Source of the DNA: Terriglobia bacterium
Lineage (GTDB): Bacteria; Acidobacteriota; Terriglobia; JAIQFV01
DNA: 64,000 bases
NCBI GenBank assembly: GCA_020073085.1
Contig: JAIQFV010000009.1
Location: 60,162 to 124,161 of the forward strand
Direction: 5' to 3'
Part shown: positions 8,529-59,135 of the stretch, piece after piece
Position numbering within the stretch: position 1 is the first letter of the stretch
How the letters are laid out: each line of letters starts with the position of its first letter
The notes under the pieces: model-generated
Databases searched by the model: none
What the model saw: only the letters and a program-made list of their open reading frames with translations
What the model was told of the DNA's origin: nothing
Position numbers and translations under genes: made by a program

Positions 8529-8627
8529 GTTGTCAGTTCTCAGTTGCCAGTGAAAGGCAAATTGCTATCAGCTCTTTACTGACAACTGGGAACCGGTCAC
8601 TGGCAACTGCTTTCGGCAACTGAGAAC
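8529..8627. repeat. Heptad-armed palindromic element, Q class (CAGTTGC/CAGTTCT arms)
   Basis: The arms are gttgtcagttctcagttgccag ... ctggcaactg..caactgagaac. It occupies the intergenic gap immediately upstream of the ATPase start. Confidence 0.6.
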
Positions 8628-9351: not shown

Positions 9352-9361
9352 ATTGCAGAAT

Positions 9362-9540
9362 TCAGTTCTCAGTTCTCAGAATTAAATTCTCAGTTGCCAG
9401 TAAGAACCTTTAGCCCGGAAGAATGACCCTGACAGATGCAAACAGAGAAGATGTTTTAAAGTGCATCCTTCGTTTCAAGACATAGAGTCGGCCGACAGCT
9501 AACAAGGGTTTACTGGCAACTGAGAACTGACAACTGACTG
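9362..9540. repeat. Heptad-armed palindromic element, Q class
   Basis: The arms are cagttctcagttctcag..ctcagttgccag ... ctggcaactgagaactgacaactg. Confidence 0.6.
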
Positions 9541-9565
9541 CAGACCACTTCTCGAGGCAAGCCCG

Positions 9566-12013: not shown

Positions 12014-12112
12014 ATTGCGGATTTCGGATTGCGGATTTCGGATTACTCAACCCCAGCCGAGGGAATCTATCGCCCATCATTGCGGCATCCGAAATCCGCA
12101 ATCCACAATCTG
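12013..12112. repeat. Heptad-armed palindromic element, R class (GGATTGC arms)
   Basis: The arms are gattgcggatttcggattgcggatttcggatt ... ccgaaatccgcaatccacaatc. A paralog of the 5827-5912 element. Confidence 0.6.
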
Positions 12113-12859: not shown

Positions 12860-12896
12860 ATTACGAAGGCTGGGTTCGTGCTGAAACCTTGAATGA

Positions 12897-13033
12897 GGTG
12901 TCAGGTGCCGGGTGTCAGGTGTCAGAGTTCAAAGACATCACAGAATCTCGATGCTGCTTTTCTGATTACTGATTCGCTCGGCGGTTGGCAAAGACTATTG
13001 CATTAATCTGCCTGACACCCGACACCTGACACC
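12897..13033. repeat. Heptad-armed palindromic element, G class (GGTGTCA/GGTGCCG arms)
   Basis: The arms are ggtgtcaggtgccgggtgtcaggtgtcag ... cctgacacccgacacctgacacc. The right arm ends about 20 nt before the ADOP start codon. Confidence 0.65.
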
Positions 13034-13053
13034 TTTTTGACATGGATTGAAAA

Positions 13054-15606
13054 ATGGAAACCCTGTTTCAGGATCTTCGCTTCAGTCTTCGGATTCTGCT
13101 GAAGAATCCCGGCTTCACCCTGGTGGCGGTGCTGACCCTGGCCCTTGGCATCGGGGCCAACACCGCCATTTTCAGTGTTGTCAATGCGGTGCTGCTCCGG
13201 ACTCTCCCCGTCCCCCGTCCCCAGGAGTTGGTTGTTCTTGGAAACCCGGATGCCCATGGGATGAGTAATGGGAGCAGTTCGGGCGACCGGGACATTTTCT
13301 CCTATCACGAATTCGAACAGCTTCGCGATCAGAACCGGGTCTTCTCGAGCATCTTTGCTGCAGCGAGCTCCGTGAACTCCATGGACGGCTACTTCGACGA
13401 GACCGGGACGAGCGAACCTGCCGAGCCTGTCAAGGCCAGCCTTGTCAGTGGCGCTTTTTTCTCTGTGCTGGGTGCCAAGCCCATTCTCGGCCGGACCTTT
13501 ACACAGGAAGTCGACAGGGTCCCGGGAGTGAACCCGGTGGCAGTCATCAGCTATGATTTTTGGAGACGGCGGTATAGCCGGGATCCTTCCGTACTGGGAC
13601 GCACGGTCCGACTTCGTCAAACCACTTTTGAGATCATCGGGGTCACAGGTCCCGGATTTTTTGGTGAAACGGTCGGTGAATCGCCGGATTTGTGGGTGCC
13701 CTTGTCGATGCAAATGGCCGTGATCCCTGGAAAAAATCTCCTGGTCGATCCAAACAGCATCATGGAGAGAACCATCTGGATACAAATCATGGGGCGGCTA
13801 AGACCCGGGGTGAGTTTGGAACAAGCCAAGGCGAGCATCAACGTGACGTTTCAGCAGATGCTTCAAACGGATGCCAGTCCGAGCCTGACGGCAGACCAGC
13901 ACAAGGAGTGGATGGATCAACGAATTGCCCCGACGAGCGCCGCGAAAGGCGCATCGACGCTGCGGGGACGCTTTACCGATCCCCTCCGGATTTTGATGGG
14001 ATTGGTCGGACTCGTGCTTCTGATTGCCTGTGCCAATGTAGCCAACCTCCTGCTCTCGCGCGCGACCATGCGTCAGAAGGAAATTGCTATGCGGCTTGCA
14101 TTGGGTGCCCGGCCCTCCCGCCTGGTGCGACAGCTCCTGACCGAGAGTCTCCTGCTCGCGTTGGTGGGCGGAGGCGTCGGCCTTGTTCTCGCGCAATGGG
14201 CAAACAGTTTGCTGGTGCGCCTGGCGTCCGGCGGGCCGGACCTGATCTCGGTTGATCTTCATCCCGATGCTCGCATCCTGGGATTCACGCTTGCCCTCTC
14301 CATCCTCACCGGGGTCATGTTCGGATTGATCCCCTCGCTTCACTCGGCTCGGTTCGATTTGAACTCCATCCTCAAAGGCAGCGGCCGGGGTGCCACCGCT
14401 GACCGCGGCCGCAACCCCATCTCCAGAATGCCCGTGGGCAAGATCCTGGTCGTGGCGCAAGTGACCATATCTCTGCTGCTGCTGGTGGTGGCGGGACTTT
14501 TCGTGCGGAGTTTTCAAAAACTCGTGAACGTCGACCTCGGTTATAAACCTGACCGGTTCTTGTTGTTCCGAATCAACCCGCTTCAAAGCGGTTACCAAGG
14601 CGCCGCCCTGCTTCAGTTTCACCGGACCCTGCTGGAAAAAATCGCAGCAATTCCCGGCGTGCAGGGGGTGACCCTTTCGGAAAATGGTTTGTTCAGCCAC
14701 ACCGAGTCCGCCGACCCCATCTGGGTGGAGGGCTACACGCCGAAGACAGGCCCCGACAAGCATGCGCGATTCGATCAGGTGGGTCCCCGCTATTTTTCGA
14801 CGGTGGGCATCCCTGTGGTAGTGGGTCGTGATGTTGATCCGCACGATGGCGGAAATGGTCCGCGGGTCGGCTGGATCAATCAGACCATGGCCCGATTCTA
14901 TTTTCCAAATACGAATCCGCTGGGAAAACATGTCCGTGACGAGTATCCCGACAACCCCGGGGAATTTGAAATCGTGGGGGTCGTCGCCGATGCGAAGTAC
15001 AACAGCCTTCGGGAAAAGACGCCGCGACGGTTCTATGTCCCCTTTTTCCATCCGATCACCGAGGTGGCCGCCGCTAACTTCGAGATTCGCACCCGGGCAG
15101 AACCGGCGGCAGTCGCGGCTTCGCTCCGCGATCTGGTAAAGTCGTTGGATCGATCCCTCCCCACGCTGCATGTCCATACAATGACGGAACTGGTCGACCA
15201 ATCGTTGGCGCGGGAGCGCCTGATCACCAGTCTATCCGGATTATTTGGGACCCTGGCGGTGTTGCTCGCTTCCATTGGGCTTTACGCCGTCATGGCGTTT
15301 GCGGTGGCTCGAAGAACGAATGAGATCGGCATCCGCATGGCCCTGGGAGCGCAGCGCCGAAACGTCCTGGGGATTGTCATGCGGGAAACCTTGGTGCTGG
15401 TCCTGCTCGGGATCGGCATCGGACTGCCCGTGGTCTTTGCCACCACACGCCTGCTTTCACAACTGCTCTTTGGGCTGACGCCCGTCGACCCCGCCACAAT
15501 CTTGATGGCCACGGTGGGGATGATTTCAGTCGCTGCCCTGGCAGCCTATCTCCCGGCCCATCGGGCAAGCCGGGTGGATCCCATGGTGGCATTGCGATAT
15601 GAGTAG
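13054..15606 (+). CDS. ABC transporter permease, duplicated FtsX (ADOP family)
   Basis: 850 aa. Begins METLFQDLRFSLRILLKNPGFT. The C-terminus ends PAHRASRVDPMVALRYE. Confidence 0.9.
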   Translation: METLFQDLRFSLRILLKNPGFTLVAVLTLALGIGANTAIFSVVNAVLLRTLPVPRPQELVVLGNPDAHGMSNGSSSGDRDIFSYHEFEQLRDQNRVFSSIFAAASSVNSMDGYFDETGTSEPAEPVKASLVSGAFFSVLGAKPILGRTFTQEVDRVPGVNPVAVISYDFWRRRYSRDPSVLGRTVRLRQTTFEIIGVTGPGFFGETVGESPDLWVPLSMQMAVIPGKNLLVDPNSIMERTIWIQIMGRLRPGVSLEQAKASINVTFQQMLQTDASPSLTADQHKEWMDQRIAPTSAAKGASTLRGRFTDPLRILMGLVGLVLLIACANVANLLLSRATMRQKEIAMRLALGARPSRLVRQLLTESLLLALVGGGVGLVLAQWANSLLVRLASGGPDLISVDLHPDARILGFTLALSILTGVMFGLIPSLHSARFDLNSILKGSGRGATADRGRNPISRMPVGKILVVAQVTISLLLLVVAGLFVRSFQKLVNVDLGYKPDRFLLFRINPLQSGYQGAALLQFHRTLLEKIAAIPGVQGVTLSENGLFSHTESADPIWVEGYTPKTGPDKHARFDQVGPRYFSTVGIPVVVGRDVDPHDGGNGPRVGWINQTMARFYFPNTNPLGKHVRDEYPDNPGEFEIVGVVADAKYNSLREKTPRRFYVPFFHPITEVAAANFEIRTRAEPAAVAASLRDLVKSLDRSLPTLHVHTMTELVDQSLARERLITSLSGLFGTLAVLLASIGLYAVMAFAVARRTNEIGIRMALGAQRRNVLGIVMRETLVLVLLGIGIGLPVVFATTRLLSQLLFGLTPVDPATILMATVGMISVAALAAYLPAHRASRVDPMVALRYE

Positions 15607-15762
15607 GTGTCAGGGATCGGGTGTTAGGTGTCAGTTTGCCGGACTGGGGAATCCAAGAACACTTGCGACCGAAGCCAGAGGACAGAAGTCAGAAGAATCA
15701 AGAACCAATCGCTTACGTCGCTGACTCTCCACCCTGACACCTGACACCCGACACCTGGCACC
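15604..15762. repeat. Heptad-armed palindromic element, G class
   Basis: The arms are ggtgtcagggatcgggtgttaggtgtcag ... ccctgacacctgacacccgacacctggcacc. The core contains cagaagt/cagaaga heptads. Confidence 0.65.
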
Positions 15763-15775
15763 TTAAGGAACATCG

Positions 15776-18202
15776 ATGGAAACATTATTTCAAGATCTCC
15801 GGCACGGCCTTCGTTTACTGACGAAATCGCCCGGGTTCACCGTGGTCGCGGTGCTGACGCTCGCCCTGGGAATCGGCGCCAATACGGCCATTTTTAGCCT
15901 TGTCAATGCGTTCCTCCTGAAGCCCCTCGCATTCCCCCAGGAAAGTCAACTGATGGTCCTCACCGGCCAAACCCGCCAGGAGAAGCGAACCGGAATCTCC
16001 TATCCGGATTTTGAGGATTGGCGGAGGCAAAGCGGGTCTTTCTCCGCCCTTTCCACATGGATGACACAGAGTGTGAATCTGACCGGGGTGGAAGAGCCGC
16101 AGCGTGTGCGCGGCGGATTTGTCTCCGCCAATTTCTTCGATGTGTTGGGCATTAAGCCCGCGCAGGGCCGCGCCTTCCTCCCGGGAGAAGATCAGCCGGA
16201 GGGGGCGCGCGTCGTAGTGGTGAATTACGGCCTGTGGCAAACGCGCTTTGGGGCCGATCCGGGGTTTGTCGGAAAACAACTCACTCTCAATGGCGCAGTG
16301 TTTACGGTGGTGGGAATCCTCCCGCCATCCTTCGAGTTTCCGTTGGACAAGGATCGGGATGAAATCTGGATGCCCGTGTCCAGCTATCCCGACTTTTCTC
16401 GAGATCGCAGTGTCTCTAATCTCGTGGCGATCGGCCGCCTGAACCCAGCCACCACCCTTAGCCGGGCACAGGCGGAGATGAATACCATCGCGCAACGACT
16501 TGCGCAGGAGTACCCGGATATAGACGGGCAGCGCGGTGTGGTGGTCGCGCCCTTGCACGAAGTGGCTGTGGAAGAGGTGCGAACCTCCCTCCTGGTGCTG
16601 TTCGCCGCCGTGGGCTTTGTCCTGCTGATCGCGTGCGCCAATGTGTCAAACCTGATGCTTGCCCGAGCGTCCGGGAGACGGAAGGAACTAGCTCTGCGTT
16701 CCGCCCTGGGCGCCAGCCGTGGTCGATTGATCCTGCAGATGATCACGGAAAGCGCCCTGTTGTGGCTGGCAGGAGGGGCACTCGGCCTCCTGGTGGGCGA
16801 TTGGGCTCTACAGGCTATTCAGGCGTCGGCGCCCTTGGCTTTTCCCCCCGGCCTTGTCCCTCGCCTGGACGGAGTGGTCTTCGGGTTTACATTGTTGGTG
16901 GCGGTCGTGACCGGATTCCTTTCGGCGCTTGCTCCCGCGCTTCAGTTCTCCCGGCCGGATTTGAACAACACCCTCAAAGAGGGTGGGAGAATCTCAGGCG
17001 AAGGATCAGGTCAAGGATGGTCGCAGAAGCTGCTCCTGGTATCGCAGGTCGCACTTTCGTTGGTGCTTCTGGCCGGCGCAGGCCTGATGCTGAAGACGGT
17101 CCTCCGGCTCTCGGACATCAGTCCGGGGTTTCGCCCGGAGGATCTTCTGACCCTGGAGTACCGTCTACCTGACACGAAATACCCCGAGCCCGCACAACAA
17201 TGGAATTTCCACCGTGAGGTGGTCGACCGCGTGAGCGGGCTTTCGGGTGTGCGGTCGGCCTCGGTCTCCCTGGGAATCCCATTCAGTGGAAACATCGGCT
17301 CGGATCCGATGGTTTTGCTGGATCGCCCGGAACCTCCTCCAGGGGAAGAACCGATCGCGGAAACCAACCTGGTCGATACCCATTACTTCAAAACCATGGA
17401 AATCCCGCTCCTCGAAGGACGGTTGTTCTCCGACCAGGATCGGGCCGGAACACCTCGCGTCGCGATCATCAACCAGAACATGGCGCGGCGCTATTGGCCG
17501 GGACGTGATCCGTTGGGAAGCCAAATCCGGGTGCGCGATGAGTTGGCGCTCGTGGGGAGTGGACCGTCGACGATCATCGGCGTCGCCGGCAACGTGAAGC
17601 AGGAGGACCTGGAGGACCCGGCAAGCGCGCAAATCTATTTTGCCTTCCAACAGAACCCGTTCAAGTTCGCCACCCTGACCGTTCGGACACAGGGCGATCC
17701 CATGCTGTTTGCCAACACAGTTCGTCGGGCGGTGTGGTCAGTGGACAAGGACCAGCCCATGTGGAAGGTACGTTCCCTCGAATCGATGCTTGACCGCTCT
17801 CTTCGCGCGCGGCGGTACTTGATGTTCTTGCTCGGTATTTACGCAACCCTGGCGCTTGGGTTGGCAACGCTCGGGATTTACGGAGTACTTTCTTACGCGG
17901 TGAACCAGCGCTTCCAGGAAATCGGCGTGCGGATGGCTTTGGGGGCACAAACCGGAGATGTATTTCGTCTGGTCATTCGAGAGGGGATGCAATTGGTGCT
18001 TGCCGGCCTGGGGATCGGACTCGCCGGCGCCTTTGCTCTGACGCGATTGATGGCAGGATTGTTGTTCGGGGTGACGCCCACCGACCCATCAACGATGGCC
18101 GCCGTGTCAGCACTTCTGACGGGAGTGGCATTCCTGGGATGCTATTTGCCGGCGCGCCGGGCAACCCGCGTCGATCCGATGGCCGCACTGAGATGCGAGT
18201 AG
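15776..18202 (+). CDS. ABC transporter permease, duplicated FtsX (ADOP family)
   Basis: 808 aa. Begins METLFQDLRHGLRLLTKSPGFT. The C-terminus ends PARRATRVDPMAALRCE. Confidence 0.9.
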   Translation: METLFQDLRHGLRLLTKSPGFTVVAVLTLALGIGANTAIFSLVNAFLLKPLAFPQESQLMVLTGQTRQEKRTGISYPDFEDWRRQSGSFSALSTWMTQSVNLTGVEEPQRVRGGFVSANFFDVLGIKPAQGRAFLPGEDQPEGARVVVVNYGLWQTRFGADPGFVGKQLTLNGAVFTVVGILPPSFEFPLDKDRDEIWMPVSSYPDFSRDRSVSNLVAIGRLNPATTLSRAQAEMNTIAQRLAQEYPDIDGQRGVVVAPLHEVAVEEVRTSLLVLFAAVGFVLLIACANVSNLMLARASGRRKELALRSALGASRGRLILQMITESALLWLAGGALGLLVGDWALQAIQASAPLAFPPGLVPRLDGVVFGFTLLVAVVTGFLSALAPALQFSRPDLNNTLKEGGRISGEGSGQGWSQKLLLVSQVALSLVLLAGAGLMLKTVLRLSDISPGFRPEDLLTLEYRLPDTKYPEPAQQWNFHREVVDRVSGLSGVRSASVSLGIPFSGNIGSDPMVLLDRPEPPPGEEPIAETNLVDTHYFKTMEIPLLEGRLFSDQDRAGTPRVAIINQNMARRYWPGRDPLGSQIRVRDELALVGSGPSTIIGVAGNVKQEDLEDPASAQIYFAFQQNPFKFATLTVRTQGDPMLFANTVRRAVWSVDKDQPMWKVRSLESMLDRSLRARRYLMFLLGIYATLALGLATLGIYGVLSYAVNQRFQEIGVRMALGAQTGDVFRLVIREGMQLVLAGLGIGLAGAFALTRLMAGLLFGVTPTDPSTMAAVSALLTGVAFLGCYLPARRATRVDPMAALRCE

Positions 18203-18346
18203 GTGTCAGGTGCCGGGTGTCAGGTGTCGGGTGCCAGAAAACCGAATTACTCTGTTCTTTTACTTGTCTGCCGTTACCTCAAAGGACAGGCATTCCAAGA
18301 ACTGTGGGACTCTTCGCCCTGGCACCTGACACCCGACACCTGATAC
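18201..18346. repeat. Heptad-armed palindromic element, G class
   Basis: The arms are aggtgtcaggtgccgggtgtcaggtgtcgggtgccag ... ggcacctgacacccgacacctgatacc. Confidence 0.65.
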
Positions 18347-18365
18347 CTTATCGAAAAAAGGAAAA

Positions 18366-22694: not shown

Positions 22695-22696
<2 letters not shown>

Positions 22697-22902
22697 GTGT
22701 CGGGTGTCGGCAAGCAGCCGTCAGCATTCAGCTATCAGCCATCAGGTGAAATTGGATTCATATGATTGGACTCAACGAGCTGTTCTCGTCTTTTGACATC
22801 TTTCACTCTAATCATAGCTGCCTGCTGATAGCTGATCGCTAACGGCTAATCACTGACAACTGAGAACTGACAACTGCTTGCTGACACCTGGCACCCGACA
22901 CC
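22695..22902. repeat. Composite nested palindrome with G-class outer arms, C-class inner arms and one Q-class right arm, carrying a micro-ORF
   Basis: From the outside in: gtgtcgggtgtcgg then cagccgtcagcattcagctatcagccatcagg, then the core, then ctgatagctgatcgctaacggctaatcactg, then gacaactgagaactgacaactg, and finally ctgacacctggcacccgacacc. Confidence 0.6.
22735..22815 (-). CDS. Candidate micro-ORF, family A (MIRVKDVKRREQLVESNHMNPISPDG, 26 aa)
   Basis: 81 nt, exactly the same length as the copies at 26109-26189 and 25450-25530. The differences between copies are mostly synonymous or conservative (I/V, R/K, ccg/cca/cct Pro). Confidence 0.4.
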   Translation of the reverse strand: MIRVKDVKRREQLVESNHMNPISPDG

Positions 22903-22916
22903 TTCTGGAGGTTAAG

Positions 22917-25352: not shown

Positions 25353-25593
25353 CAGTTGCCAGCAAGCAGTTGCCAGTTGTCAGTTCTCAGTTCTCAGTTG
25401 ACAATCGCAAGAGGTTAGTGCTCAGCTATCAGTTTTCTGCAATCAGCGATCAGCCTTCAGCTGAAATAGGATTCAATGGACCGGGAGTAATGAAACATTC
25501 GAATCTCTTGATATGTTTGACCTCAATCATAGCTGACTGCTGAGAGCTGATCGCTGACGGCTGGTTGCTGGCAACTGACAACTGGCAACTATC
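25351..25593. repeat. Composite nested palindrome with Q-class outer arms and C-class inner arms, carrying a micro-ORF
   Basis: The outer arms are cagttgccagcaagcagttgccagttgtcagttctcagttctcagttg ... ggttgctggcaactgacaactggcaact. The inner arms are cagctatcag..cagcgatcagccttcagctg ... agctgactgctgagagctgatcgctgacgg. Confidence 0.6.
25450..25530 (-). CDS. Candidate micro-ORF, family A (MIEVKHIKRFECFITPGPLNPISAEG, 26 aa)
   Basis: 81 nt. The peptide is conserved with the copies at 26109 and 22815(-) through synonymous and conservative codon changes. Confidence 0.4.
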   Translation of the reverse strand: MIEVKHIKRFECFITPGPLNPISAEG

Positions 25594-25614: not shown

Positions 25615-26019
25615 ATGCCATCCTCTCGCGAGATCGGATATGCTCTGTTGCGAGTGACCTTGGGTGTCCTGTTTGCGACCTACGGGATCGGAAAATTCCG
25701 GATGGGGGTCGGCAACTTTGCCGGCATGATGGAAAAAGAGTTCACCGGGAAACTCCCGATGGTCATGGTCTCGCCGTTCGGTTATCTAGTACCGTTCGCT
25801 GAACTGCTGGTCGGTGTCCTGCTGACCTTCGGGCTTTTCACCCTTCTCGCGCTCACCCTGGCCGGGCTGCTCATGATTGCACTGACCTTCGGGATGGCCC
25901 TCTTGGGGCAGGCTCCCGTTGTCGCGCAAAACCTCACTTACGTCCTGGCGATTTTTGTTCTTTTGTGGACCGCGGAAAATAATGGATATTCATTGGATCG
26001 ACTGCGGCAGGGTAGGTAA
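25615..26019 (+). CDS. DoxX-family membrane protein
   Basis: 134 aa. Begins YALLRVTLGVLFATYGIGKF. Four predicted TM helices. Confidence 0.7.
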   Translation: MPSSREIGYALLRVTLGVLFATYGIGKFRMGVGNFAGMMEKEFTGKLPMVMVSPFGYLVPFAELLVGVLLTFGLFTLLALTLAGLLMIALTFGMALLGQAPVVAQNLTYVLAIFVLLWTAENNGYSLDRLRQGR

Positions 26020-26023
26020 CACT

Positions 26024-26244
26024 TGTCAGTTGTCAGTTGCCAGAAATAAGTTGCCAGGTCTCACTTGCCATCAAGGAGCTGTCAGCGATCGGCCATCAGC
26101 AGTCAGCTATGATTAGAGTGAGACACATCAAACAATATGAGGACTTCATTGATTCCAGTCACTTGAATCCGATTCCAGCTTATGGCTGATAGCTGAATGC
26201 TGACAGCTCTTTACTGGCAACTGACAACTGAGAACTGACAACTG
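26024..26244. repeat. Composite nested palindrome with Q-class outer arms and C-class inner arms, carrying a micro-ORF
   Basis: The outer arms are tgtcagttgtcagttgccag..gttgccag ... ctggcaactgacaactgagaactgacaactg. The inner arms are gctgtcagcgatcggccatcagcagtcagct ... ggctgatagctgaatgctgacagc. Confidence 0.6.
26109..26189 (+). CDS. Candidate micro-ORF, family A (MIRVRHIKQYEDFIDSSHLNPIPAYG, 26 aa)
   Basis: The start codon is the last heptad of the left C-arm (cagctATG). The stop TGA lies inside the right arm (ggcTGAtagctg). Confidence 0.4.
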   Translation: MIRVRHIKQYEDFIDSSHLNPIPAYG

Positions 26245-26269
26245 TATTTCCAACTTCACCCCCGGGGGA

Positions 26270-26949: not shown

Positions 26950-27385
26950 CGGGTGCCACAGGCATCATGCTTGGGTGCCGCAGGCATCGTGCTCTTTACG
27001 ATGCCTGCGCCAGGTTCCCGATAAGAACACTGGCTGTTCCCGCAACGTCCCTGAAACGACAGATGGGGTGCCGCAGGTATCGTGTTCTTTACGATGCCTG
27101 CGCCAGGTTCCCGATGAGATCACGGGCTGTTCCCGCAACGTCCCTGAAACGACAGATGGGTGCCGCAAGTATCGTGCTCTTTACGATGCCTGCGCCAGGT
27201 TCCCGATGAGATCACGGGCCGTTCCCGCAACGTCCCTGAAACGACAGATGGGTGCCGCAGGCATCATGCTCTTTACGATGCCTGCGCCAGGTTCCCGATG
27301 AGATCACTGGCTGTTCCCGCAACGTCCCTGAAACGACAGATGGGGTGCCGCGGGCATCGTGCTCTTTACGATGCCTGCGCTGGAA
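26950..27385. repeat. Tandem direct repeat with a 92-bp unit, about 4.6 copies, each holding an internal 11-bp hairpin
   Basis: The unit is ggtgccgcaggcatcgtgctctttacgatgcctgcgccaggttcccgatgagatcacgggctgttcccgcaacgtccctgaaacgacagatgg. Copies differ by only a few SNPs. Each has the stem gcaggcatcgt / acgatgcctgc. Confidence 0.85.
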
Positions 27386-27524: not shown

Positions 27525-27917
27525 TTATGCTCCCGGCATGCAATTCTTCAAATACTCTTTTATTCTCTCCTTGTCCTCAATTTCCTGATCCCCTTTGAAA
27601 TACATCTCGATAAACTCGACTTTTAAGATTTCCCGGTAAAACGCGTAAATCACTCTGAGACCGCTCTTTGAACCGCGCCCTTTTAATGCTCTGCAGGCAA
27701 ATTTCTTCAGCTTGTAAATCTCAACTGCCTCAGTGCCGAATCCTTGGACTCGAAAGACACTTTGGTTGTCAATGTCCTTGAGATGGTAAAGCTCGATGGC
27801 GTCCCGCTTCGCGGTCTGCAAGTCAGACTCGAGGGTTCTGAATCTCTTGAGTAATTTCCTGAAGTCCTTTGTGAAGGAAGCCGTCTCGCAGTAGTCAATC
27901 CTCGTCGGAGGTTCCAT
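27525..27917 (-). CDS. RelE/ParE-fold toxin candidate, partner of the Panacea-domain antitoxin
   Basis: The C-terminal region reads GLRVIYAFYREILKVEFIEMYFKGDQE, which resembles the RelE core (yRiiYrvd..v.vl.ighRkd). It overlaps the upstream antitoxin stop by 23 nt. The start is taken as the internal Met (MEPPTRIDYCETASF...). Confidence 0.55.
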   Translation of the reverse strand: MEPPTRIDYCETASFTKDFRKLLKRFRTLESDLQTAKRDAIELYHLKDIDNQSVFRVQGFGTEAVEIYKLKKFACRALKGRGSKSGLRVIYAFYREILKVEFIEMYFKGDQEIEDKERIKEYLKNCMPGA

Positions 27918-28683
27918 AGTCACGGACTGAAGTGTCAGCAGTTCGATAAAATACCGACTCGTAATCCAACTTTTTTCCTGATTGGGCGCTAATCCAGGGG
28001 ACATCTTTGTGGGAGAGATCAGAGAGAGCCGTGGCTGTCAGATCCGAAAGGCGCCGCATTTCCCAGTCAATATGCTCCTTTTCCTGGCCGTTTAGAATAC
28101 TCAAATCGGGCACTGTCGCCGGATTGACCAGGTACTTTGTCTGGGGGTATTGATAAAATTTACTCTTGACCGGTTCCACATCGCCTTTCTTCACGAGTTC
28201 GTCAATCAGCTTATCAAAGAGAAGCGGCGTAGGGCCATGTTGGTTCTTCAGGTAGACCAAACCCATTAATTGCTCTTCATGTTTCTCGTAATAATCAAAA
28301 TCAATGAAATAGAGCAGCTTGTACAGGGCGGTCATACCAATGTTCGGCTTGCCACCGACTTCTTTGAGGATATAGAGCAGGACCTGCTTGAATTTGTCCA
28401 TCCTCTCCTGCGGGACACTGATTCTGAACTCTTCTCTTCGCTTTCTTGGCTGAATCTTACCTTTCTCAACTCTTACGGTGACATGAGGTTCCTCTTCCCG
28501 TATGAAACTTTCAAATGGGATGCCAAAAACCTCCGCCAGTTTCCTTGCCTCCGACAGATTCAACTCCCGCTTACCTTGCTCAATCTGGACATATGTCGGT
28601 CGCGACATTCTGACTTCTGACGCCAAATATTCCTGCGTCAGCTTGCGCTTCTCACGCAATTTTCGAATAAATTCTGAGAGCAT
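27895..28683 (-). CDS. Antitoxin candidate with an N-terminal HTH-XRE domain and a C-terminal DUF4065 (Panacea) domain
   Basis: The N-terminus has LREKRKLTQEYLASEVRMSRPTYVQIEQGKRELNLSEARKLAEVFGI, a Cro/C1-type HTH. The C-terminus has KLLYFIDFDYYEKHEEQLMGLVYLKNQHGPTP, typical of DUF4065. Confidence 0.65.
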   Translation of the reverse strand: MLSEFIRKLREKRKLTQEYLASEVRMSRPTYVQIEQGKRELNLSEARKLAEVFGIPFESFIREEEPHVTVRVEKGKIQPRKRREEFRISVPQERMDKFKQVLLYILKEVGGKPNIGMTALYKLLYFIDFDYYEKHEEQLMGLVYLKNQHGPTPLLFDKLIDELVKKGDVEPVKSKFYQYPQTKYLVNPATVPDLSILNGQEKEHIDWEMRRLSDLTATALSDLSHKDVPWISAQSGKKLDYESVFYRTADTSVRDYGTSDED

Positions 28684-34924: not shown

Positions 34925-34928
34925 GAAG

Positions 34929-35155
34929 AGTTGTCAGTTCTCAGTTGTCAGTGAGGAGCTGCCACACTCATTTGATTCTATTTACGGCCGCTGTAATAGA
35001 ACCAACGTCATAAAAACCATGACTCTTCTTGCGCGTTTTTCAAAGCTGATGGCTGAAAGCTGACAGGCTGAAGTTCAACTCTAACATCTCGCAACTGACA
35101 ACTGAGAACTGGCAACTGGGAACTGAGAACTGAATTCTGGCAACTTCAGTCTAGA
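34929..35155. repeat. Heptad-armed palindromic element, Q class
   Basis: The arms are gttgtcagttctcagttgtcagtg ... caactgacaactgagaactggcaactgggaactgagaactg. The right arm ends 5 nt before the ADOP-fragment start. Confidence 0.6.
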
Positions 35156-35159
35156 AATC

Positions 35160-35651
35160 ATGAATGCATTCTTCAAAGACCTCCGCTTCGGCATTCGCGT
35201 GCTGGTGAAAAGCCCGGGATTCACAGCCATCGCTGTGATCACCCTCGCTCTCGGCATTGGGGCCAATTGCGCCATCTTTAGCGCCGCTAACGCCATCCTC
35301 CGCTCTCTCCCAGTCCGGGATCCGGATCGATTGATCTGGGTTTGGGATGGTCAACCTCAGCTGAAGCAGGCGCCCGCCTCCTATACGGATTTCGTGGACT
35401 GGCGGAACATGAACCTTGTTCTTGAAGAGATGTCCGCAGGCCGCGGCGCCAACTTCAACCTGACCGGGACCGGTGATCCCGAGCGTCTCCCGGGGTTCAA
35501 ATATCAGGTGTCGCGTGTCAGGAGACAGGATGCTGGGGTTTTAGGACACTTGCGACTGAGGTCAGAGGCCAGAAGACTGAAGTCAGGAATCGGAAGACAG
35601 AAGTCAAAAGGTACAGGCTGGAAGTCGGATGAATCAAAAACCATTCTCTAA
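35160..35651 (+). pseudogene. N-terminal fragment of an ADOP permease gene (about 113 aa of roughly 800), truncated into a G-class repeat
   Basis: It begins [41 protein letters not shown], through [14 protein letters not shown]. The reading frame then runs into the gtgtcgcgtgtcagg repeat. No FtsX domain follows. Confidence 0.7.
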
Positions 35652-35699
35652 TTTTTCGCTTCTTGCACCCAGACACCCGACACCTGGCACCCGACACCT
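35505..35699. repeat. Heptad-armed palindromic element, G class
   Basis: The arms are caggtgtcgcgtgtcagg ... cccagacacccgacacctggcacccgacacc. The core contains cagaaga/cagaagt heptads. Confidence 0.6.
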
Positions 35700-35719
35700 T
35701 TGCGTATAAGGAGAAAACT

Positions 35720-36547
35720 ATGCTATCAACCCATTCACTCAAGTCTATGCTTCTCATCATTGCATCACTGCTTCTCGCAACAATCCAGGCGATGGCTTTG
35801 GGAGCAGACCCGCAAGATCGGAGTTTGAACTGCAACGACCAGTGGAAAAACGGCCGGCTGGCGACCTTCTGCGAAATGAGGGAGCAGACCATTCCGGCGG
35901 CTCGAGGGACGCTCTCCGTGGATGGCCGGATGAACGGGGGGATTGGTATCAAAGGATGGGATCGGAATGAAATCCTTGTTCGCGCCCAGGTCCAGGCGTC
36001 CGCCTCTACCGACACAGCGGCCCGCGACTTGGCCAAACAGGTTCGGATCGAAACGGGCGGAGGACAGATTCGGGCCGAGGGCCCTTCCCAAGACCATGAC
36101 CGGAATTGGTCCGTCAGCTATGAAATCTTTGTACCCCGACAGTCCGATCTCTCCCTCAAGACCCACAATGGCGGCATCGGCATCGCCGAGGTCAGCGGCC
36201 ACATCGATTTCTCAGCGCTCAATGGTGGCGTTTCTTTGAAGCGCCTGGGAGGAACGGTCAAAGGCAGCACTACCAACGGGGGTCTCTCCATTGATCTCGC
36301 GGGGAGCCGATGGGAAGGCGAGGGGCTGGACGTCAGGACCACCAATGGCGGGGTCTCCATGTCGGTTCCGGAGAACTATTCAGCCCAGTTGGAAACGGGT
36401 ACGGTGAACGGGGGCCTGGATATCGGATTCCCCGTCACCGTACAGGGTAAGTTGAACAAAGAGCTTTCTGTAACACTGGGCTCCGGCGGCCCGTTGATCC
36501 GCGCCATGACTACCAATGGAGGAGTCCGGGTTCATCGGAAGAGCTGA
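35720..36547 (+). CDS. DUF4097 (toastrack / putative adhesin) domain protein, secreted
   Basis: It has a signal peptide and repeated beta-strand units (NGGIGI, NGGVSL, TNGGLSIDL, TTNGGVSMSV, TVNGGLDIGF, TTNGGVRVH). Confidence 0.7.
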   Translation: MLSTHSLKSMLLIIASLLLATIQAMALGADPQDRSLNCNDQWKNGRLATFCEMREQTIPAARGTLSVDGRMNGGIGIKGWDRNEILVRAQVQASASTDTAARDLAKQVRIETGGGQIRAEGPSQDHDRNWSVSYEIFVPRQSDLSLKTHNGGIGIAEVSGHIDFSALNGGVSLKRLGGTVKGSTTNGGLSIDLAGSRWEGEGLDVRTTNGGVSMSVPENYSAQLETGTVNGGLDIGFPVTVQGKLNKELSVTLGSGGPLIRAMTTNGGVRVHRKS

Positions 36548-36558
36548 AGAGCAGGGTT

Positions 36559-37213
36559 CAGGTGCCGGGGGTCAGGTGTCGGGTGCCAGGTGTCAGAGGA
36601 GCGTTGGGCCAATGAACGCCCGTGAAGGCAACTGAGCCCGCAATGCCCAATCGGGGAGGGCGATGTAACTCCCAAACCCTCACCGAGCACTCTCTGCCAT
36701 AAGCTGCCGCTCGTTAGGTTTTCGCCTTCCTAAGGCTCCTAAATAGGCCAGCCAGCATACGTCCTACCTCCGCTGTCAGGTTAAGGAGCGGCTCCACGGA
36801 ATTCATTGGCACATATGATAGTCGAGACGCCAGCACTAGGTGTGTTTCCAATTCCATCAGGGAACCATTTGCCACCGAAAGATGATGTAGATAGTCTCCC
36901 AAATGTTCACGACCATGTCCTTCTGCAATGTTTGCTGGGACAGAAACAGCTGAACGCTGGATCTGACACGTTAAGCCATACATTTCTCTTCTTGGCAAGA
37001 GTTGAGTCAACTTATAGCTTTCGACGACAAGGTCCATTAACTTTTGCCAGACAACGAGGTCTCTAAAACTACGAACGGACATGGGCGCCTTCATTTCCGG
37101 GGGAAGGGTTTTACAAGAACCTATGATAATTTCAAACAATACACCAATTATGAGATTCTGCCACCCTATAACCAGCCCCTGACACCCGGCACCCGACACC
37201 TGGCACCTGACAT
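36559..37213. repeat. G-class palindromic element whose arms enclose a complete four-helix-bundle gene
   Basis: The left arm is caggtgccgggggtcaggtgtcgggtgccaggtgtcag and the right arm is cctgacacccggcacccgacacctggcacctgaca. Confidence 0.6.
36714..37094 (-). CDS. Four-helix-bundle protein (TIGR02436, the 23S rRNA intervening-sequence protein family; Avd-like fold)
   Basis: Contains FRDLVVWQKLMDL ... LTCQIQRSAVSVPANIAEGHGR ... ANGSLMELETHLVLASRLSYV. The longer upstream frame to 37262 reads through the repeat arm. Confidence 0.7.
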   Translation of the reverse strand: MKAPMSVRSFRDLVVWQKLMDLVVESYKLTQLLPRREMYGLTCQIQRSAVSVPANIAEGHGREHLGDYLHHLSVANGSLMELETHLVLASRLSYVPMNSVEPLLNLTAEVGRMLAGLFRSLRKAKT

Positions 37214-37279
37214 CTGGAATTCTCATCAATGTAAATTTTGGTTGCAGCGACTGAAGAGCCATAGCATCATGTACACCCT

Positions 37280-38803
37280 ATGCGGATCGGAATGCTGGCT
37301 CCTATTTCAAATCGGATACCTCCCCGGCAATTTGGCCCGTGGGAACGCGTGATTTCTCTTCTGACGGAAGGGTTGGTTGAATACGGACTGGATGTCACTC
37401 TGTTCGCAACCGCAGATTCGCTTACCCGGGCCCGGCTCCACAGCGTTTGCCCTCGTCCACTCTCGGAGGATTCCACCCTGGACCCACGGGTGTGGGAATC
37501 CCTGCACCTGGCCGCCGCCTTCGAACGGGCGTCGGAATTCGACCTGATTCACAACTTTGCAGATTTCGCCCCCCTTGCTTACTGCAATCTCGTCAAGACA
37601 CCCATCCTGACCACACTGTACAAGTCGGCATCGAAGCAGAATTTACCCGTCTATGAGAAATACAACGGCCGGACCCGTTACATAGCCATTAGCAAGGCGG
37701 ATCTGAAACCTCAGCTCAATTATCTTGCCACGATCTATCATGGCATAGCGCCGGAGGAGTTCACCTTCCAGCGTGAACCGGGCGACTATTTCCTGTGCTT
37801 CGGGCGCATCCACCCCGAAAAGGGGACCGCTGAAGCGATTCAGGTCGCTCGGCGCGCCAGACAGCGGCTGGTCATCGCGGGGGTGATTGACGATATGGAA
37901 TATTTTAAGCAGGAGGTCGCACCCCAAGTGGATGGAGAACACATTCAATATCTCGGGGCCGTGGGACCGGAACGCCGCAACGAACTGCTCGGTGGCGCGT
38001 GCGCCCTGCTCCACTTGGTCAAATTCGACGAGCCCTTTGGCTTCAGCGTAATTGAAGCCATGGCGTGCGGCACTCCGGTGATTGCCTGTGGCCGGGGTTC
38101 AGTCCCTGAATTGATCCTCCACGAGGAAACCGGTTTCATCGTCAGCTCAATCCCTGAGGCCGTGGCCGCGCTGGAATCGGTCCGCAAGTTGGACCGTGAA
38201 CAGGTTCGTCTTCATGTCGAACAGAACTTCAGCCGCGACCGGATGGTCGATGAATACATCCGCGTTTATATGGAAGCGTTAAGCAAGGAAGGCAAGGCGG
38301 CCACGGTCCCCCCCCAGGCGATCGCAGTGAAGGACGATCCGGTGGTGGCGGAAAATATTCCGGTTGCCGTGGCGGGCGAACCTGCCGTGGGCGCGGTCGA
38401 CGTCGCCGCTGAGGTACCACGGTTTTTCACCGAATCAGCGTTTGCTCCGACGACCTCCTCCAGTCAGGATCAATCCTCTTCGGGCAGTTTTACCGTTATC
38501 GAGGAAGGCACCGGGTACAAAGTCAGGCGCATCGAATTGCTGCCCGGCAAGCAATTGAGTTGCCGGAGGCATGCCCAGCGATCGGAGCAGTGGACGATCG
38601 TCCAGGGTCTTGGAAAAGTGCGGATTGACGGGGACGAGCGGCTTGTTCGCGTCGGTCAGAAGATCAATGTCCCCGTGGGTGTAGCCCACAGCATGGAGAA
38701 CTTTGGAGAACAACTGCTGGTCTTTATTGAAACCCAACGCGGCCCCTACCTGGGAGAAGATGATATCGAACAACTGCAGGATGACGTTGGGATAGTTCCC
38801 TAG
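37280..38803 (+). CDS. Glycosyltransferase family 4 fused to a C-terminal cupin domain
   Basis: The GT4 EX7E region reads EPFGFSVIEAMACGTPVIA. After a low-complexity linker the cupin reads YKVRRIELLPGKQLSCRRHAQRSEQWTIVQGLGKVRIDGDE...VPVGVAHSMEN. Confidence 0.75.
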   Translation: MRIGMLAPISNRIPPRQFGPWERVISLLTEGLVEYGLDVTLFATADSLTRARLHSVCPRPLSEDSTLDPRVWESLHLAAAFERASEFDLIHNFADFAPLAYCNLVKTPILTTLYKSASKQNLPVYEKYNGRTRYIAISKADLKPQLNYLATIYHGIAPEEFTFQREPGDYFLCFGRIHPEKGTAEAIQVARRARQRLVIAGVIDDMEYFKQEVAPQVDGEHIQYLGAVGPERRNELLGGACALLHLVKFDEPFGFSVIEAMACGTPVIACGRGSVPELILHEETGFIVSSIPEAVAALESVRKLDREQVRLHVEQNFSRDRMVDEYIRVYMEALSKEGKAATVPPQAIAVKDDPVVAENIPVAVAGEPAVGAVDVAAEVPRFFTESAFAPTTSSSQDQSSSGSFTVIEEGTGYKVRRIELLPGKQLSCRRHAQRSEQWTIVQGLGKVRIDGDERLVRVGQKINVPVGVAHSMENFGEQLLVFIETQRGPYLGEDDIEQLQDDVGIVP

Positions 38804-40290: not shown

Positions 40291-40512
40291 GAAGGTGCCA
40301 GGAACGAGGTGTCAGGTGCCAGGTGTCGGGTGTCAGGGGGCCGAGACACGGTAGCTGGAGTGTTTGAACAGATGCGACCGAGGTCAGAAGCCAGAAGTCA
40401 GAAAGATCAGACACAGTTCATTTGAGTTTCGGATCCTGCCACCTGACACCCGACACCTGGTACCCGACACCTCGTTCCGGCATCCTGACACCCGACACCT
40501 GGCACCCCACAC
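40291..40512. repeat. Heptad-armed palindromic element, G class
   Basis: The arms are ggtgccaggaacgaggtgtcaggtgccaggtgtcgggtgtcagg ... cctgacacccgacacctggtacccgacacctcgttccggcatcctgacacccgacacctggcacc. Confidence 0.6.
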
Positions 40513-40519
40513 CTCTTCC

Positions 40520-54241: not shown

Positions 54242-54246
54242 AGAGC

Positions 54247-54465
54247 AGTTGTCAGTTCTCAGTTGCCAGTTGCCAGTTGCCAGAAAACAGTTGCCAGTTC
54301 TCAGTGGCCAGTTGCCAGTGAAAACCGTTTATTCCAATGGTCTTTTTTGTCGCAGATGTGTGCACAGCTGTTTCGCAGATACCCTCGATTGGGATGTGAA
54401 TCCAAATTTGATGAAAATCGCGAATCCCTTGTCATCCACTGACAACTGAGAACTGACAACTGGCT
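54247..54465. repeat. Heptad-armed palindromic element, Q class, carrying a family-B micro-ORF
   Basis: The left arm is a CAGTTGC array repeated nine times or more (cagttgtcagttctcagttgccagttgccagttgccag...). The right arm is ctgacaactgagaactgacaactgg. The core is homologous to the 58950-59135 element. Confidence 0.6.
54301..54435 (-). CDS. Candidate micro-ORF, family B (MTRDSRFSSNLDSHPNRGYLRNSCAHICDKKDHWNKRFSLATGH, 44 aa)
   Basis: It shares an in-frame peptide at about 60% identity with the minus-strand ORF starting at 59094 (MTPDFRFSPDSDTHADRGHLRNSRARACNKR...). Confidence 0.35.
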   Translation of the reverse strand: MTRDSRFSSNLDSHPNRGYLRNSCAHICDKKDHWNKRFSLATGH

Positions 54466-54491
54466 ACTGCTTTCTGACAGCTGCTTCTTTC

Positions 54492-56253
54492 ATGGAAACA
54501 CTGCTTCAAGACCTGCGATATGGCCTTCGATTGCTGGCCAATAACCCCGGCTTCACGCTGGTTGCGCTTCTCGCCCTGGCACTGGGAATTGGGGCCAACT
54601 GCGCCATCTTCAGCGTGGTGAACGCGGTCCTTCTCCGTCCACTGCCCTATCCGGAATCCAACCGCCTGATTTTTCTCGCCGAGAGAGAACCCCAGTTGGA
54701 TGGGATGTCCGTGGCTTACCCCAACTTCTCGGATTGGCGCGAACAAAACACCGTTTTTGAGAAGATCGCCGTTTTTCGACGGCAAAGTTACAACCTGACC
54801 GGAACGGGCGAGCCTGAACGGCTGATCGGTGGGCAGGTATCCGCCGATCTCTTCCCAATCCTCAGGGCCGCCCCGGAACTGGGACGCACTTTCTCCGCGG
54901 ACGAAGACAAACCTGGGGGTAATCAAGTTGTCATCTTAAGCCATGGATTGTGGCAACGTCGCTACGGGTCCGATCCGTACCTTCTGGGTAAGACCCTCAT
55001 TTTGAGCGGCAGAGCTTACACCGTGATCGGAATCATGCCGGCTGAATACCAGTTTCCCAGTCGAGTCGAGCTGTGAGTACCGGTGGGGCAGGAGTCTGGA
55101 CAACCTGGCTGGCAGGAACGCGGCAATCATCCCGGGCTTTATGGAGTAGCCCGCCTCAAGACAGGCGTATCCCTTGGCCAGGCTCGGGCCGAGATGGATA
55201 CCATCGCCGCTCGACTCGAGAAACAATATCCCCGGACCAACACGGGCAACCGGGTGACCATGAGCCCTTTGCTCGAGGTGTTTGTAAAGGAGATTCGCCC
55301 CCTCTTGTTGGTTCTTCTGGGAGCGGTCGGTTTTGTACTGTTGATTGCCTGCGCCAATGTCGCCAATCTTCAGCTCACGCGCGCGGCTGCACGGCAGAAA
55401 GAAATTGCTATTCGCATGGCACTCGGTGAGCCCTGATTACTTTCGGACGATGGGTATCCCGCTGTTGCGCGGACGCACTTTTACGGTTCAAGACACGAAG
55501 GATGCCCCCAAGGTGGTTGTCATCGACGAGAGTTTTGCAAAACAATACTGGCCCGGCGAGGATGCCATTGGACGGCATTTGACATTTGGCGGACATGATT
55601 CCAAGAGTGTTATGAACACCGTCGTGGGGATTGTAGGCAGGGTCAAAATGGAGGGATTGGATACCGACTCCAACCGCGTCCAGGCCTATCAACCCCTTAC
55701 TCAAAACACATGGAATGGAATGACCTTTGTCTTGCGGACCACGGCGGACCCTCTGGGGTTGGTCTCTGCGGCGCGAAAGCAAGTCCTCGCGGTCGACCCC
55801 GACGAACCCATGTACAATGTAAGGAGCATCGAACAAGTCTGGGAAGAGTCGGTGGCACCACAGCGTTTGAACCGGTTGTTGTTTGGCCTCTTTGCAGGAT
55901 TGGCCCTACTGCTCTCCGCCGTCGGGATCTATGGGGTGATGGCCTACGCGGTAACGCAACGGACGCATGAGATCGGGATACGAATTGCCCTCGGCGCGGG
56001 AGCTGGACAAGTGGTTCGATTGGTCGTCGGGCATGGAATGTTGCTGGCGCTGACTGGAATTGCGATCGGATTGACAGCAGCATTGGCGCTGACCCGCCTC
56101 ATGTCGACCTTTCTTTTTGGGGTCAGAGCCTTCGACCCGTTGACCTTTGTGGTTATTTCATTCTTGCTGGGAACTGTGGGCCTCGTCTCGAGCTATATTC
56201 CGGCGCGCAAGGCCACGAAAGTCGATCCCATCATTGCGCTCAGGTATGAGTAA
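54492..56253 (+). pseudogene. Decayed ADOP permease gene, with an in-frame TGA at a conserved Trp codon and an internal deletion/frameshift
   Basis: Its N-terminus ([22 protein letters not shown]) and C-terminus (PARKATKVDPIIALRYE) are intact. A TGA at 55074-55076 sits where the paralogs have the (E/D)LW(M/V)P Trp codon. The frame changes near 55425, where the first FtsX block ends abruptly (AIRMALGEP*) and the frame 1 reading ([16 protein letters not shown]) picks up from about 55345, about 80 nt upstream. The total is only about 590 codons. Confidence 0.7.
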
Positions 56254-56418
56254 GTGTCGGGTGTCAGGTGTCGGGTGTCAGAAAGACCCACTCGATTACT
56301 TTGAAACTGAAGGCGAGGCCAGAAATCGGAAGCCAGAAATCAGAAAATACATTCTTATTCCTCCTGGCATCGCTGGGGTGCCCTTTCCCTGACACCCGGC
56401 ACCTGACACCCGACACCT
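56252..56418. repeat. Heptad-armed palindromic element, G class
   Basis: The arms are agtgtcgggtgtcaggtgtcgggtgtcag ... ccctgacacccggcacctgacacccgacacc. The core has cagaaat/cggaagc heptads. Confidence 0.65.
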
Positions 56419-58942: not shown

Positions 58943-59094
58943 AGAGAGGAGTTGTCGGTTGCCAGTTCCCAGTTTCCAGTGAACACGGATTCCTCGGATG
59001 GTCTTTTATTGCAGGCCCGGGCACGGCTATTTCGCAAATGCCCTCGATCGGCATGGGTATCCGAATCTGGTGAAAATCGAAAGTCCGGTGTCAT
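58873..59094 (-). CDS. Candidate micro-ORF, family B (MTPDFRFSPDSDTHADRGHLRNSRARACNKRPSEE...); its 3' end is uncertain
   Basis: The first roughly 35 codons are conserved in frame with the 54301-54435 ORF. The listed ORF runs on into the 3' end of the regulator gene, which is probably not real coding sequence. Confidence 0.3.
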   Translation of the reverse strand: MTPDFRFSPDSDTHADRGHLRNSRARACNKRPSEESVFTGNWELATDNSSLHNPYFWSLRYNPLRLKPNACAA

Positions 59095-59135
59095 CCACTG
59101 GCAACTGGGAACTGGCAACTGAGAACTGACAACTC
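58950..59135. repeat. Heptad-armed palindromic element, Q class, carrying a family-B micro-ORF
   Basis: The arms are gttgtcggttgccagttcccagtttccagtg ... ctggcaactgggaactggcaactgagaactgacaactc. The core is about 75% identical to the 54320-54440 core. Confidence 0.6.

Follow-up and report, generated by a model that had tools for sequence, protein, structure and literature searches.

Inverted heptad repeat arrays around a gene for a four-helix-bundle protein of the 23S rRNA intervening sequence family in a Terriglobia bacterium and at homologous loci

Proteins of PF05635/TIGR02436 form a very large family with solved structures, for which, to our knowledge, neither a function nor a catalytic activity is known. 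The over-representation of heptamer repeats in bacterial genomes has been known for decades and is without an explanation. Intervening sequences of 23S rRNA are removed by RNase III, which cuts in the terminal stem, and that of Coxiella has a 28-bp terminal stem with tandem GACAGAT heptamers of variable copy number, which is cut by this enzyme (PMC4990558). In Xanthomonas campestris, 186 GGGAATC arrays (70 convergent pairs) were interpreted as G-quadruplex elements, and a GGGGAYT repeat is described for Nostoc (PMC4692102). TAACTGA heptamer repeats are found in Beggiatoaceae and cyanobacteria (PMC4679880), while heptanucleotide-repeat stem-loops are described for P6b of the Nostoc trnL intron (PMC4476775). 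Avd, the four-helix-bundle protein of diversity-generating retroelements, is a nucleic-acid-binding pentamer, and XCC0516 of X. campestris is a pentamer as well (Lin et al. 2006, to the extent cited in PMC4990558). Searches of the openly searchable literature for TIGR02436, PF05635 or S23 in connection with heptamer or STRR repeats gave the Coxiella paper as the single match (PMC4990558). As far as the searchable literature goes, inverted heptad arrays as a general rule for the PF05635/TIGR02436 family appear to be undescribed.

The locus analysed here lies in a 64-kb stretch of DNA (the window) from a Terriglobia bacterium. A minus-strand ORF (36714-37094) matched TIGR02436 (1.4e-33, 115 bits, cut-off 24), PF05635 (1.3e-34, 119 bits, cut-off 33.8) and NF008911 (150.5 bits, cut-off 137); the closest solved structure is PDB 2GSC, the XCC0516 protein of X. 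campestris (1e-21). [quoted passage not shown] A 182-aa ORF running through the right arm was rejected as an artefact of ORF extension. According to tblastn, the gene is the sole TIGR02436 gene in the 64-kb window, and its coding sequence has a GC content of 47%, compared to 57-58% in the flanking genes. The dN/dS ratio between the window copy and its orthologues at three related loci (L004, L002 and L151) was 0.10-0.14, including the comparison of a sense with an antisense copy. The gene is intact and under purifying selection in both orientations (dN/dS 0.10-0.15), and it is not a pseudogene.

The enclosing arms are inverted arrays of approximately 5.6 heptads each. The left arm, (GGTGYCR)n on the plus strand, extends from 36554 to 36599 and is C-rich, (YGRCACC)n, on the gene strand, where it lies downstream of the stop codon. 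The right arm, (YGRCACC)n on the plus strand, extends from 37176 to 37217 and is G-rich, (GGTGYCR)n, upstream of the gene on the gene strand. The best inverted repeat (36559-36599 with 37176-37216) has a length of 41 nt, a complementarity of 83% and a spacing of 576 nt, and TRF detected period-7 arrays of 5.6 copies each at 36558-36596 and 37178-37216. With one scoring scheme, the stem around the four-helix-bundle gene reached a score of 27.75, whereas the median over the whole window was 8.5 and positions free of arrays scored at most 13.25; the same score was reached at 0.8% of the window positions, every one of which is another palindrome. A heptad dimer (GGTGYCRGGTGYCR, up to 2 mismatches) had 65 matches in the 64-kb window compared to 6.8 ± 2.8 in shuffled sequences, corresponding to an approximately 10-fold over-representation.

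The whole module (36550..37217), as delimited by the identity drop and the inversion in two related loci described below, consists of arm, trailer, gene, leader and arm. The 5' leader (37083..37175, minus strand) is AT-rich (43% GC) and conserved among orthologues, with GAAGG located 8-12 nt before the ATG. The 3' trailer (36600..36713, minus strand), approximately 115 nt from stop codon to arm, is kept in this lineage only: the copies of the window, L004, L002 and L151 can be aligned, while the segment is missing from L148 and most other cassettes, and in most other loci the 3' arm begins 0-40 nt past the stop codon. The trailer may have a structural or regulatory role specific to this lineage. 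On the left, a DUF4097 'toastrack' host gene (35720..36547, plus strand) ends with its stop codon 7 nt before the arm; on the right, a gene for a glycosyltransferase fused to a mannose-6-P isomerase/cupin domain (37292..38803, plus strand) starts 75 nt past the arm. A consensus scan of the cassette for sigma-70 promoters and terminators gave no match, PADLOC gave zero matches to defence systems, and no consistent target-site duplication was seen at the arm edges. An Rfam search of the 64-kb window returned zero families and no rRNA, which places the locus outside helix 25 or 45 of 23S rRNA, the sites of intervening sequences in the strict sense.

The original prediction, made from the sequence of the window, had described a complete minus-strand four-helix-bundle gene of family TIGR02436 enclosed by arms and related to Avd. 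The enclosure is borne out by the inverted repeat, the TRF arrays and the intact ORF, the family assignment by scores far above the curated cut-offs, and the relationship to Avd, a distant one, by weak matches to Avd models (NF033474, 37 bits, cut-off 80; PF22296, 36 bits, cut-off 40; phrog_3206, 1.9e-10). These matches would also be expected of an orphan Avd gene left by a diversity-generating retroelement. Such an origin is, nevertheless, extremely improbable, since the Avd models stayed under their cut-offs while those for intervening-sequence proteins were far above theirs, and a Pfam search of the flanking genes and ten neighbours within approximately 9 kb gave no reverse transcriptase and no transposase, recombinase or invertase either.

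For comparison, 80 loci encoding relatives of the protein (51-82% identity) were drawn from species-representative genomes of approximately nine phyla, the taxa being Acidobacteriota, Gemmatimonadota, Planctomycetota, Verrucomicrobiota, Chloroflexota, Cyanobacteriota, Desulfobacterota, Bacteroidota and Rhizobium. For each gene, the 260 nt upstream and the 260 nt downstream were searched for their best complementary stem, whose score was compared to the 95th percentile of shifted-position controls; this threshold was exceeded in 74 of the 77 analysable loci. Period-7 arrays were present on both sides in 67 of 75 loci, with a median of 5.4 heptads per arm, and the consensus heptads of the two arms were complementary within one mismatch in 52 of these 67. 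Array density was 2.69 per kb within 320 nt of the gene and 0.19 per kb in the remaining parts of these loci (14-fold); control loci picked via an unrelated protein (193 kb, four-helix-bundle gene absent) had 0.28 arrays per kb. In most of the sampled genomes, no heptad array other than the arms is present within approximately 5 kb. A chance juxtaposition of arrays around an unrelated gene, to which we assign as little probability as to the orphan Avd gene, is excluded by the 74 of 77 loci.

The heptad varies by lineage (CAGGTGT, TAGGTGC, CAGGGGT, CAGGATT, CGGTGTT, AAGGGAC and others), while the arms of one locus agree, and two paralogues within one genome were found to have different heptad dialects. 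The polarity, with the G-rich arm 5' and the C-rich arm 3' of the gene, was the same in 69 loci, reversed in none and mixed in one. Because of the palindromic arrangement, this polarity is the same on both strands, and the gene has AGG-rich repeats upstream in either orientation. The upstream neighbour was co-directional with the gene in 55 loci and not in 17, and the neighbour pattern '+F+' (35 loci) was found more often than '-F-' (7 loci). We propose a class defined as a PF05635 gene between inverted period-7 arrays, G-rich upstream, with arms at most approximately 150 nt from the start and stop codons; the window locus and 67-74 of 75-77 relatives belong to it. That other TIGR02436 genes should lie between heptad arms, the test put forward with the original prediction, was thus found in the large majority of relatives, and the insertion-like placement suggested there is reflected in the tight packing of the gene between host genes, often inside operons.

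Several features of the heptads themselves were observed in the survey. Those of the upstream arm almost always contain YAGG (CAG 38, TAG 15 and CGG 7 of 67 loci), which resembles the Shine-Dalgarno core, and the downstream arm (…CACCT…) is similar to the 3' end of 16S rRNA. The YAGG heptads also resemble the CAGGAUG repeats of CsrB-type RNAs. CCCCAGY heptad arrays were located in two acidobacterial loci (L012, 2025-2063; L033, 2035-2109); since the cyanobacterial STRR1 repeat is CCCCAGT, repeats of this type also occur outside the cyanobacteria.

Heptad arms were also found with more distant relatives (31-52% identity). In Anabaena sp. 90, the gene is located between cas6 and cas4, where (AGGTGAC/AGGGAAC)n forms the upstream and (GTCACCT)n the downstream arm, and in Picosynechococcus between cmr2 and cmr3, again with heptad arms, which are present at the copies of Nostoc punctiforme, Leptolyngbya and Gemmatirosa as well. 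The copy of Azospirillum lipoferum (L089) lies with its heptad arms inside an LSU rRNA gene and on the same strand, and is therefore a genuine intervening sequence. The XCC0516-type gene of Xanthomonas (L157, 2001-2330; L160/L162, 2001-2378) is inserted in sense orientation between accB and accC, an essential gene pair. Its arms, (CGGGAAT)n and the complement, correspond to the GGGAATC repeat, and this heptad also forms a palindrome without the gene just downstream of accC (L160/L162, 3802-4051). Exceptions are two copies in Nostoc PCC 7120, whose upstream side, adjacent to a transposase gene, has been lost, a Pseudanabaena copy with direct instead of inverted arrays, and an Avd-like phage match without arrays. 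No relatives of the four-helix-bundle protein were detected in viral contigs.

The history of the locus can be followed in its close relatives. The cassette is located upstream of the same glycosyltransferase gene where the glycosyltransferase is 100%, 86% and 77% identical, and also in L002/L003; judged by these orthologous positions, it is inherited vertically at this locus. The two flanks of L004 align colinearly with those of the window (82% and 78% identity) and window positions 36712-37165 align in reverse (84%), from which it follows that the arm-bounded segment was flipped. Between L148 and the window, identity is 86-88% for the flanking proteins, compared to only 69%, with saturated dS, for the four-helix-bundle protein. 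The arms of L148 are of a different heptad type (TAGGTTA/TAGGGGA, CAGGTAT), and the nearest relatives of its four-helix-bundle protein have TAGG-type arms too. At the nucleotide level, the flanks of L148 and the window share 80-93% identity; the decrease to 28-77% is confined precisely to the segment delimited by the outer arm edges (36550 to approximately 37210). Across loci, protein identity and heptad similarity were related with a rho of -0.44, a value confounded with phylogeny. The alignments show arms and gene as what is evidently one heritable module, inverted once and replaced once at this locus with breakpoints at the arms. With respect to the suggestion in the original prediction that the palindrome is a carrier for a small gene, the gene does lie inside the arms, whereas a generic carrier capturing a gene is not in line with the joint replacement and inversion of arms and gene.

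An orthologous empty site was not found: a metagenome scan with the glycosyltransferase gave only relatives of at most 61% identity in which the synteny is different, exact-protein look-ups led to close relatives that all have the cassette already, and relatives of 58% identity have a different gene order.

The inversion of the arm-bounded segment between the window and L004 might indicate that the arms are recombination sites of an invertible, phase-variable switch flipping the gene on and off. This is very improbable, considering that a single orientation was found in all same-strain contigs among the matches listed (16 with a 100%-identical glycosyltransferase) and that the orientation is the same in three related species. 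Furthermore, no invertase is encoded among the neighbours within approximately 9 kb, and homologous recombination across any 40-bp inverted repeat would give a single inversion.

Other rearrangements were observed next to the cassette. A gene for a MacB-type permease (window 35160-35698) is cut to its first approximately 110 codons and ends at a G-class palindrome. L002 and L151 have a full 797-aa MacB-type gene at the position of this fragment and no DUF4097 gene, and in L004 the fragment is wholly missing; the endpoints of the MacB/DUF4097 rearrangement coincide with heptad arrays. A 3.7-kb contig from another metagenome (L001, 1-1895) is 100% identical to window 35489-37272. Past window 37272/37273, a truncated ATP synthase alpha/beta gene replaces the glycosyltransferase. 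This junction lies 55 nt beyond the right arm and reflects a strain-level rearrangement unless the assembly is chimeric.

Heptad palindromes are not restricted to the gene. Approximately 17 of them are present in the 64-kb window and only one contains the gene, so that arms can exist without it. Their classes are G (GGTGYCR), T (CAGTTGY), GATTGCG/GATTTCG and inner CAGAAGY and CAGCNAT arrays; some of the palindromes are nested. The nearest gene-free G-class palindrome (35507..35698), with an inner purine-rich (CAGAAGY)n half-array, is located at the end of the truncated MacB fragment; other gene-free G-class palindromes are found at 12896-13034, 15606-15763, 18202-18348, 22696-22903, 40293-40514 and 56253-56418. 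Gene-free palindromes of the other classes (CAGTTGY, GATTGCG/GATTTCG) are located at 5830-5913, 8529-8612, 9356-9545, 12010-12111, 25365-25593, 26017-26246, 34928-35135, 54244-54469 and 58951-59134. The loops are approximately 25-170 nt long in all window palindromes except the gene-bearing one. Gene-free palindromes and cassette have arm class and polarity in common. No sequence similarity was detected between the leader or trailer of the cassette and the interiors of gene-free palindromes, and a derivation by internal deletion is thus unsupported.

Several palindromes of the other classes enclose inner CAGCNAT palindromes in a nested arrangement, and super-periods of 14 or 21 nt are common. 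Unpaired (CAGAAGY)n half-arrays are found inside G-class palindromes at 15660-15700, 35540-35625, 40375-40405 and 56310-56346, always on the plus strand and with a ACTTGCGACCGAGG-like sequence just before. The CAGAAGY heptad type forms the cassette arms in Nostoc punctiforme and, in a related form, those of the Azospirillum intervening sequence. Elsewhere in the window, a tandem repeat (26972-27380; 92-nt unit, 4.4 copies, 94% matches) overlaps a 108-aa ORF, and each of its units holds a short palindrome (GCAGGCATCGTGCTCTTTACGATGCCTGC). A gene encoding an HTH and SocA/Panacea-domain protein of the antitoxin type (27895-28683, minus strand) is unrelated to the cassette.

The window palindromes occupy spacers between co-directional genes, many of them encoding MacB-type permease paralogues, with the left arm at or just past the stop codon and the right arm ending 10-25 nt before the next start. 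This placement is what would be expected if the palindromes were intergenic punctuation of the host, i.e. regulatory or structural elements (mRNA stabilisers, processing sites or G-quadruplex formers) with the gene as an incidental passenger, and Rehm et al. read the GGGAATC arrays of Xanthomonas as G4 regulators (PMC4692102). We regard this explanation as improbable. With the arms being the only arrays near the gene in most sampled genomes and a 14-fold enrichment around it, the association is gene-centred; moreover, the arm type changes together with the protein, and many classes (CAGTTGY, GATTGCG, AAAAGCT) cannot form a G4.

The palindromes might alternatively be a mobile element at the DNA level, similar to MITEs or REPs, of which the gene-bearing copy is the autonomous or master copy and whose protein spreads or maintains the arrays in trans. 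A single gene among approximately 17 palindromes in 64 kb would fit this, as would Xanthomonas, where 186 GGGAATC arrays, 70 as inverted pairs (PMC4692102), share their heptad with the four-helix-bundle gene. The replacement of the module as a unit in L148, the very diverse insertion sites including essential operons and rRNA, the low GC of the cassette, a symmetric pairing without RNA-strand bias (see below) and the two paralogues with different dialects in one genome point in the same direction. We nevertheless consider a mobile element rather unlikely. Neither a transposase, recombinase or reverse transcriptase among the neighbours within approximately 9 kb nor a target-site duplication at the arm edges was found, no viral carriers were detected, and the protein family is without known catalytic activity. 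In addition, the locus was inherited vertically through approximately 20% nucleotide divergence. Close to other four-helix-bundle loci, most gene-free arrays belong to another heptad class than the local arms (same class in 17% compared to 11% background), unlike in Xanthomonas, where the dominant repeat class is that of the gene's arms.

Taken together, the locus is probably, if by no means certainly, an intervening-sequence-type cassette in an intergenic spacer, with arms and gene as one heritable module and a putative stem of the RNase III type. The gene is bracketed by a G-rich array of the YAGGNNN type (here CAGGTGY) upstream and its complement downstream. In the proposed mechanism, transcription would normally occur via read-through from the upstream host gene, which is suggested by the mostly co-directional orientation of the relatives with that gene. 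Once transcribed, the arms would pair into a duplex of approximately 40 bp and seal the cassette off from the host transcript. By analogy with 23S rRNA intervening sequences, this duplex may be a substrate of RNase III, and its cleavage would make an insertion into spacers, operons or rRNA harmless to the host. The gene-free palindromes in the spacers of this genome may be the same chassis minus the gene. The protein, as an Avd-like pentamer, might bind the heptad arrays as RNA or DNA, which is a guess.

Predicted folds of both strands have the arms as closing stem (-260.6 kcal/mol, z -5.2, and -235.8 kcal/mol, z -3.3), and the predicted RNase III-type duplex fits the tight, co-oriented placement of relatives in operons. 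Among the stem mismatches, G-U pairs numbered 106 in sense and 111 in antisense orientation; without an excess on the sense strand, nothing points specifically to selection at the RNA level over a constraint at the DNA level. The mirror order of heptad variants between the arms was weak (mean z 0.46, with significance at 3 of 55 individual loci). The arms are complementary chiefly in their consensus motif, which would be expected for a factor binding this motif as well. Although the window copy and its closest orthologues run antisense to the genes on either side, they are under purifying selection. Read-through can therefore not be the sole source of expression, and the copy in this lineage must have a promoter of its own, for which the consensus scan gave no match. 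The G-U symmetry, the weak mirroring and the antisense conservation leave room for a constraint on the heptad motif at the level of DNA or of protein recognition.

Beyond the cassette itself, a possible though doubtful extension is that PF05635/TIGR02436 proteins are dedicated trans-acting partners of a pan-bacterial class of heptad palindromes. Each protein would recognise its own dialect, perhaps with one heptad per subunit of the pentamer, as the median of approximately 5 heptads per arm might suggest, and would control processing, stability or spread of gene-bearing and gene-free palindromes alike. If true, this would unite ORF-bearing 23S rRNA intervening sequences, the GGGAATC arrays of Xanthomonas and the STRR-type repeats of cyanobacteria.

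The window locus appears to be a typical member of a widespread and seemingly undescribed architecture of gene plus repeats. The near-universal pairing of gene and heptads provides a concrete handle on a protein family without a function and on heptamer repeats without an explanation. In the cassette reading, ORF-bearing 23S rRNA intervening sequences are suggested to be one insertion site of a general cassette, and the presence of four-helix-bundle genes inside cas operons and accBC would be explained. The same reading predicts that the protein binds heptad RNA or DNA and that RNase III cuts within the arms.

Compared to known systems, the locus resembles REP/BIME elements and MITEs in being a short palindromic intergenic element of a kind that occurs in many copies and often inside operons. 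It differs from them in that the arms are tandem 7-nt repeats of several classes and that no RAYT, transposase or target-site duplication was found. With the bacterial heptamer repeats (GGGAATC, GGGGAYT, STRR, TAACTGA), it has the 7-nt period, the intergenic location, the frequent convergent pairs and the variable copy number in common, and the T-class heptad of the window, CAACTGA, is one base off the published TAACTGA. In the respective studies, these repeats were taken as free-standing G-quadruplex or translational regulators, and a four-helix-bundle gene is unmentioned (PMC4692102, PMC4679880). Avd of diversity-generating retroelements belongs to a homologous four-helix-bundle fold family; in contrast to these retroelements, neither a reverse transcriptase nor template/variable repeats were found in the flanks and the neighbourhood of approximately 9 kb, and the Avd models remained below threshold. 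The closest likeness in architecture is that to the ORF-bearing 23S rRNA intervening sequences of Leptospira, Coxiella, Brucella and some Alphaproteobacteria, which have a protein of the same family encoded in the loop and complementary termini forming a long stem. Their stem has its counterpart here in the arms (41 nt, 83% complementary), which close the predicted minimum-free-energy fold on both strands, whereas the window copy is located in a spacer between protein-coding genes and antisense to its neighbours. Since one feature of intervening sequences, the location in rRNA, and two features of diversity-generating retroelements are missing, the locus is best described as a putative intervening-sequence-type cassette outside rRNA.
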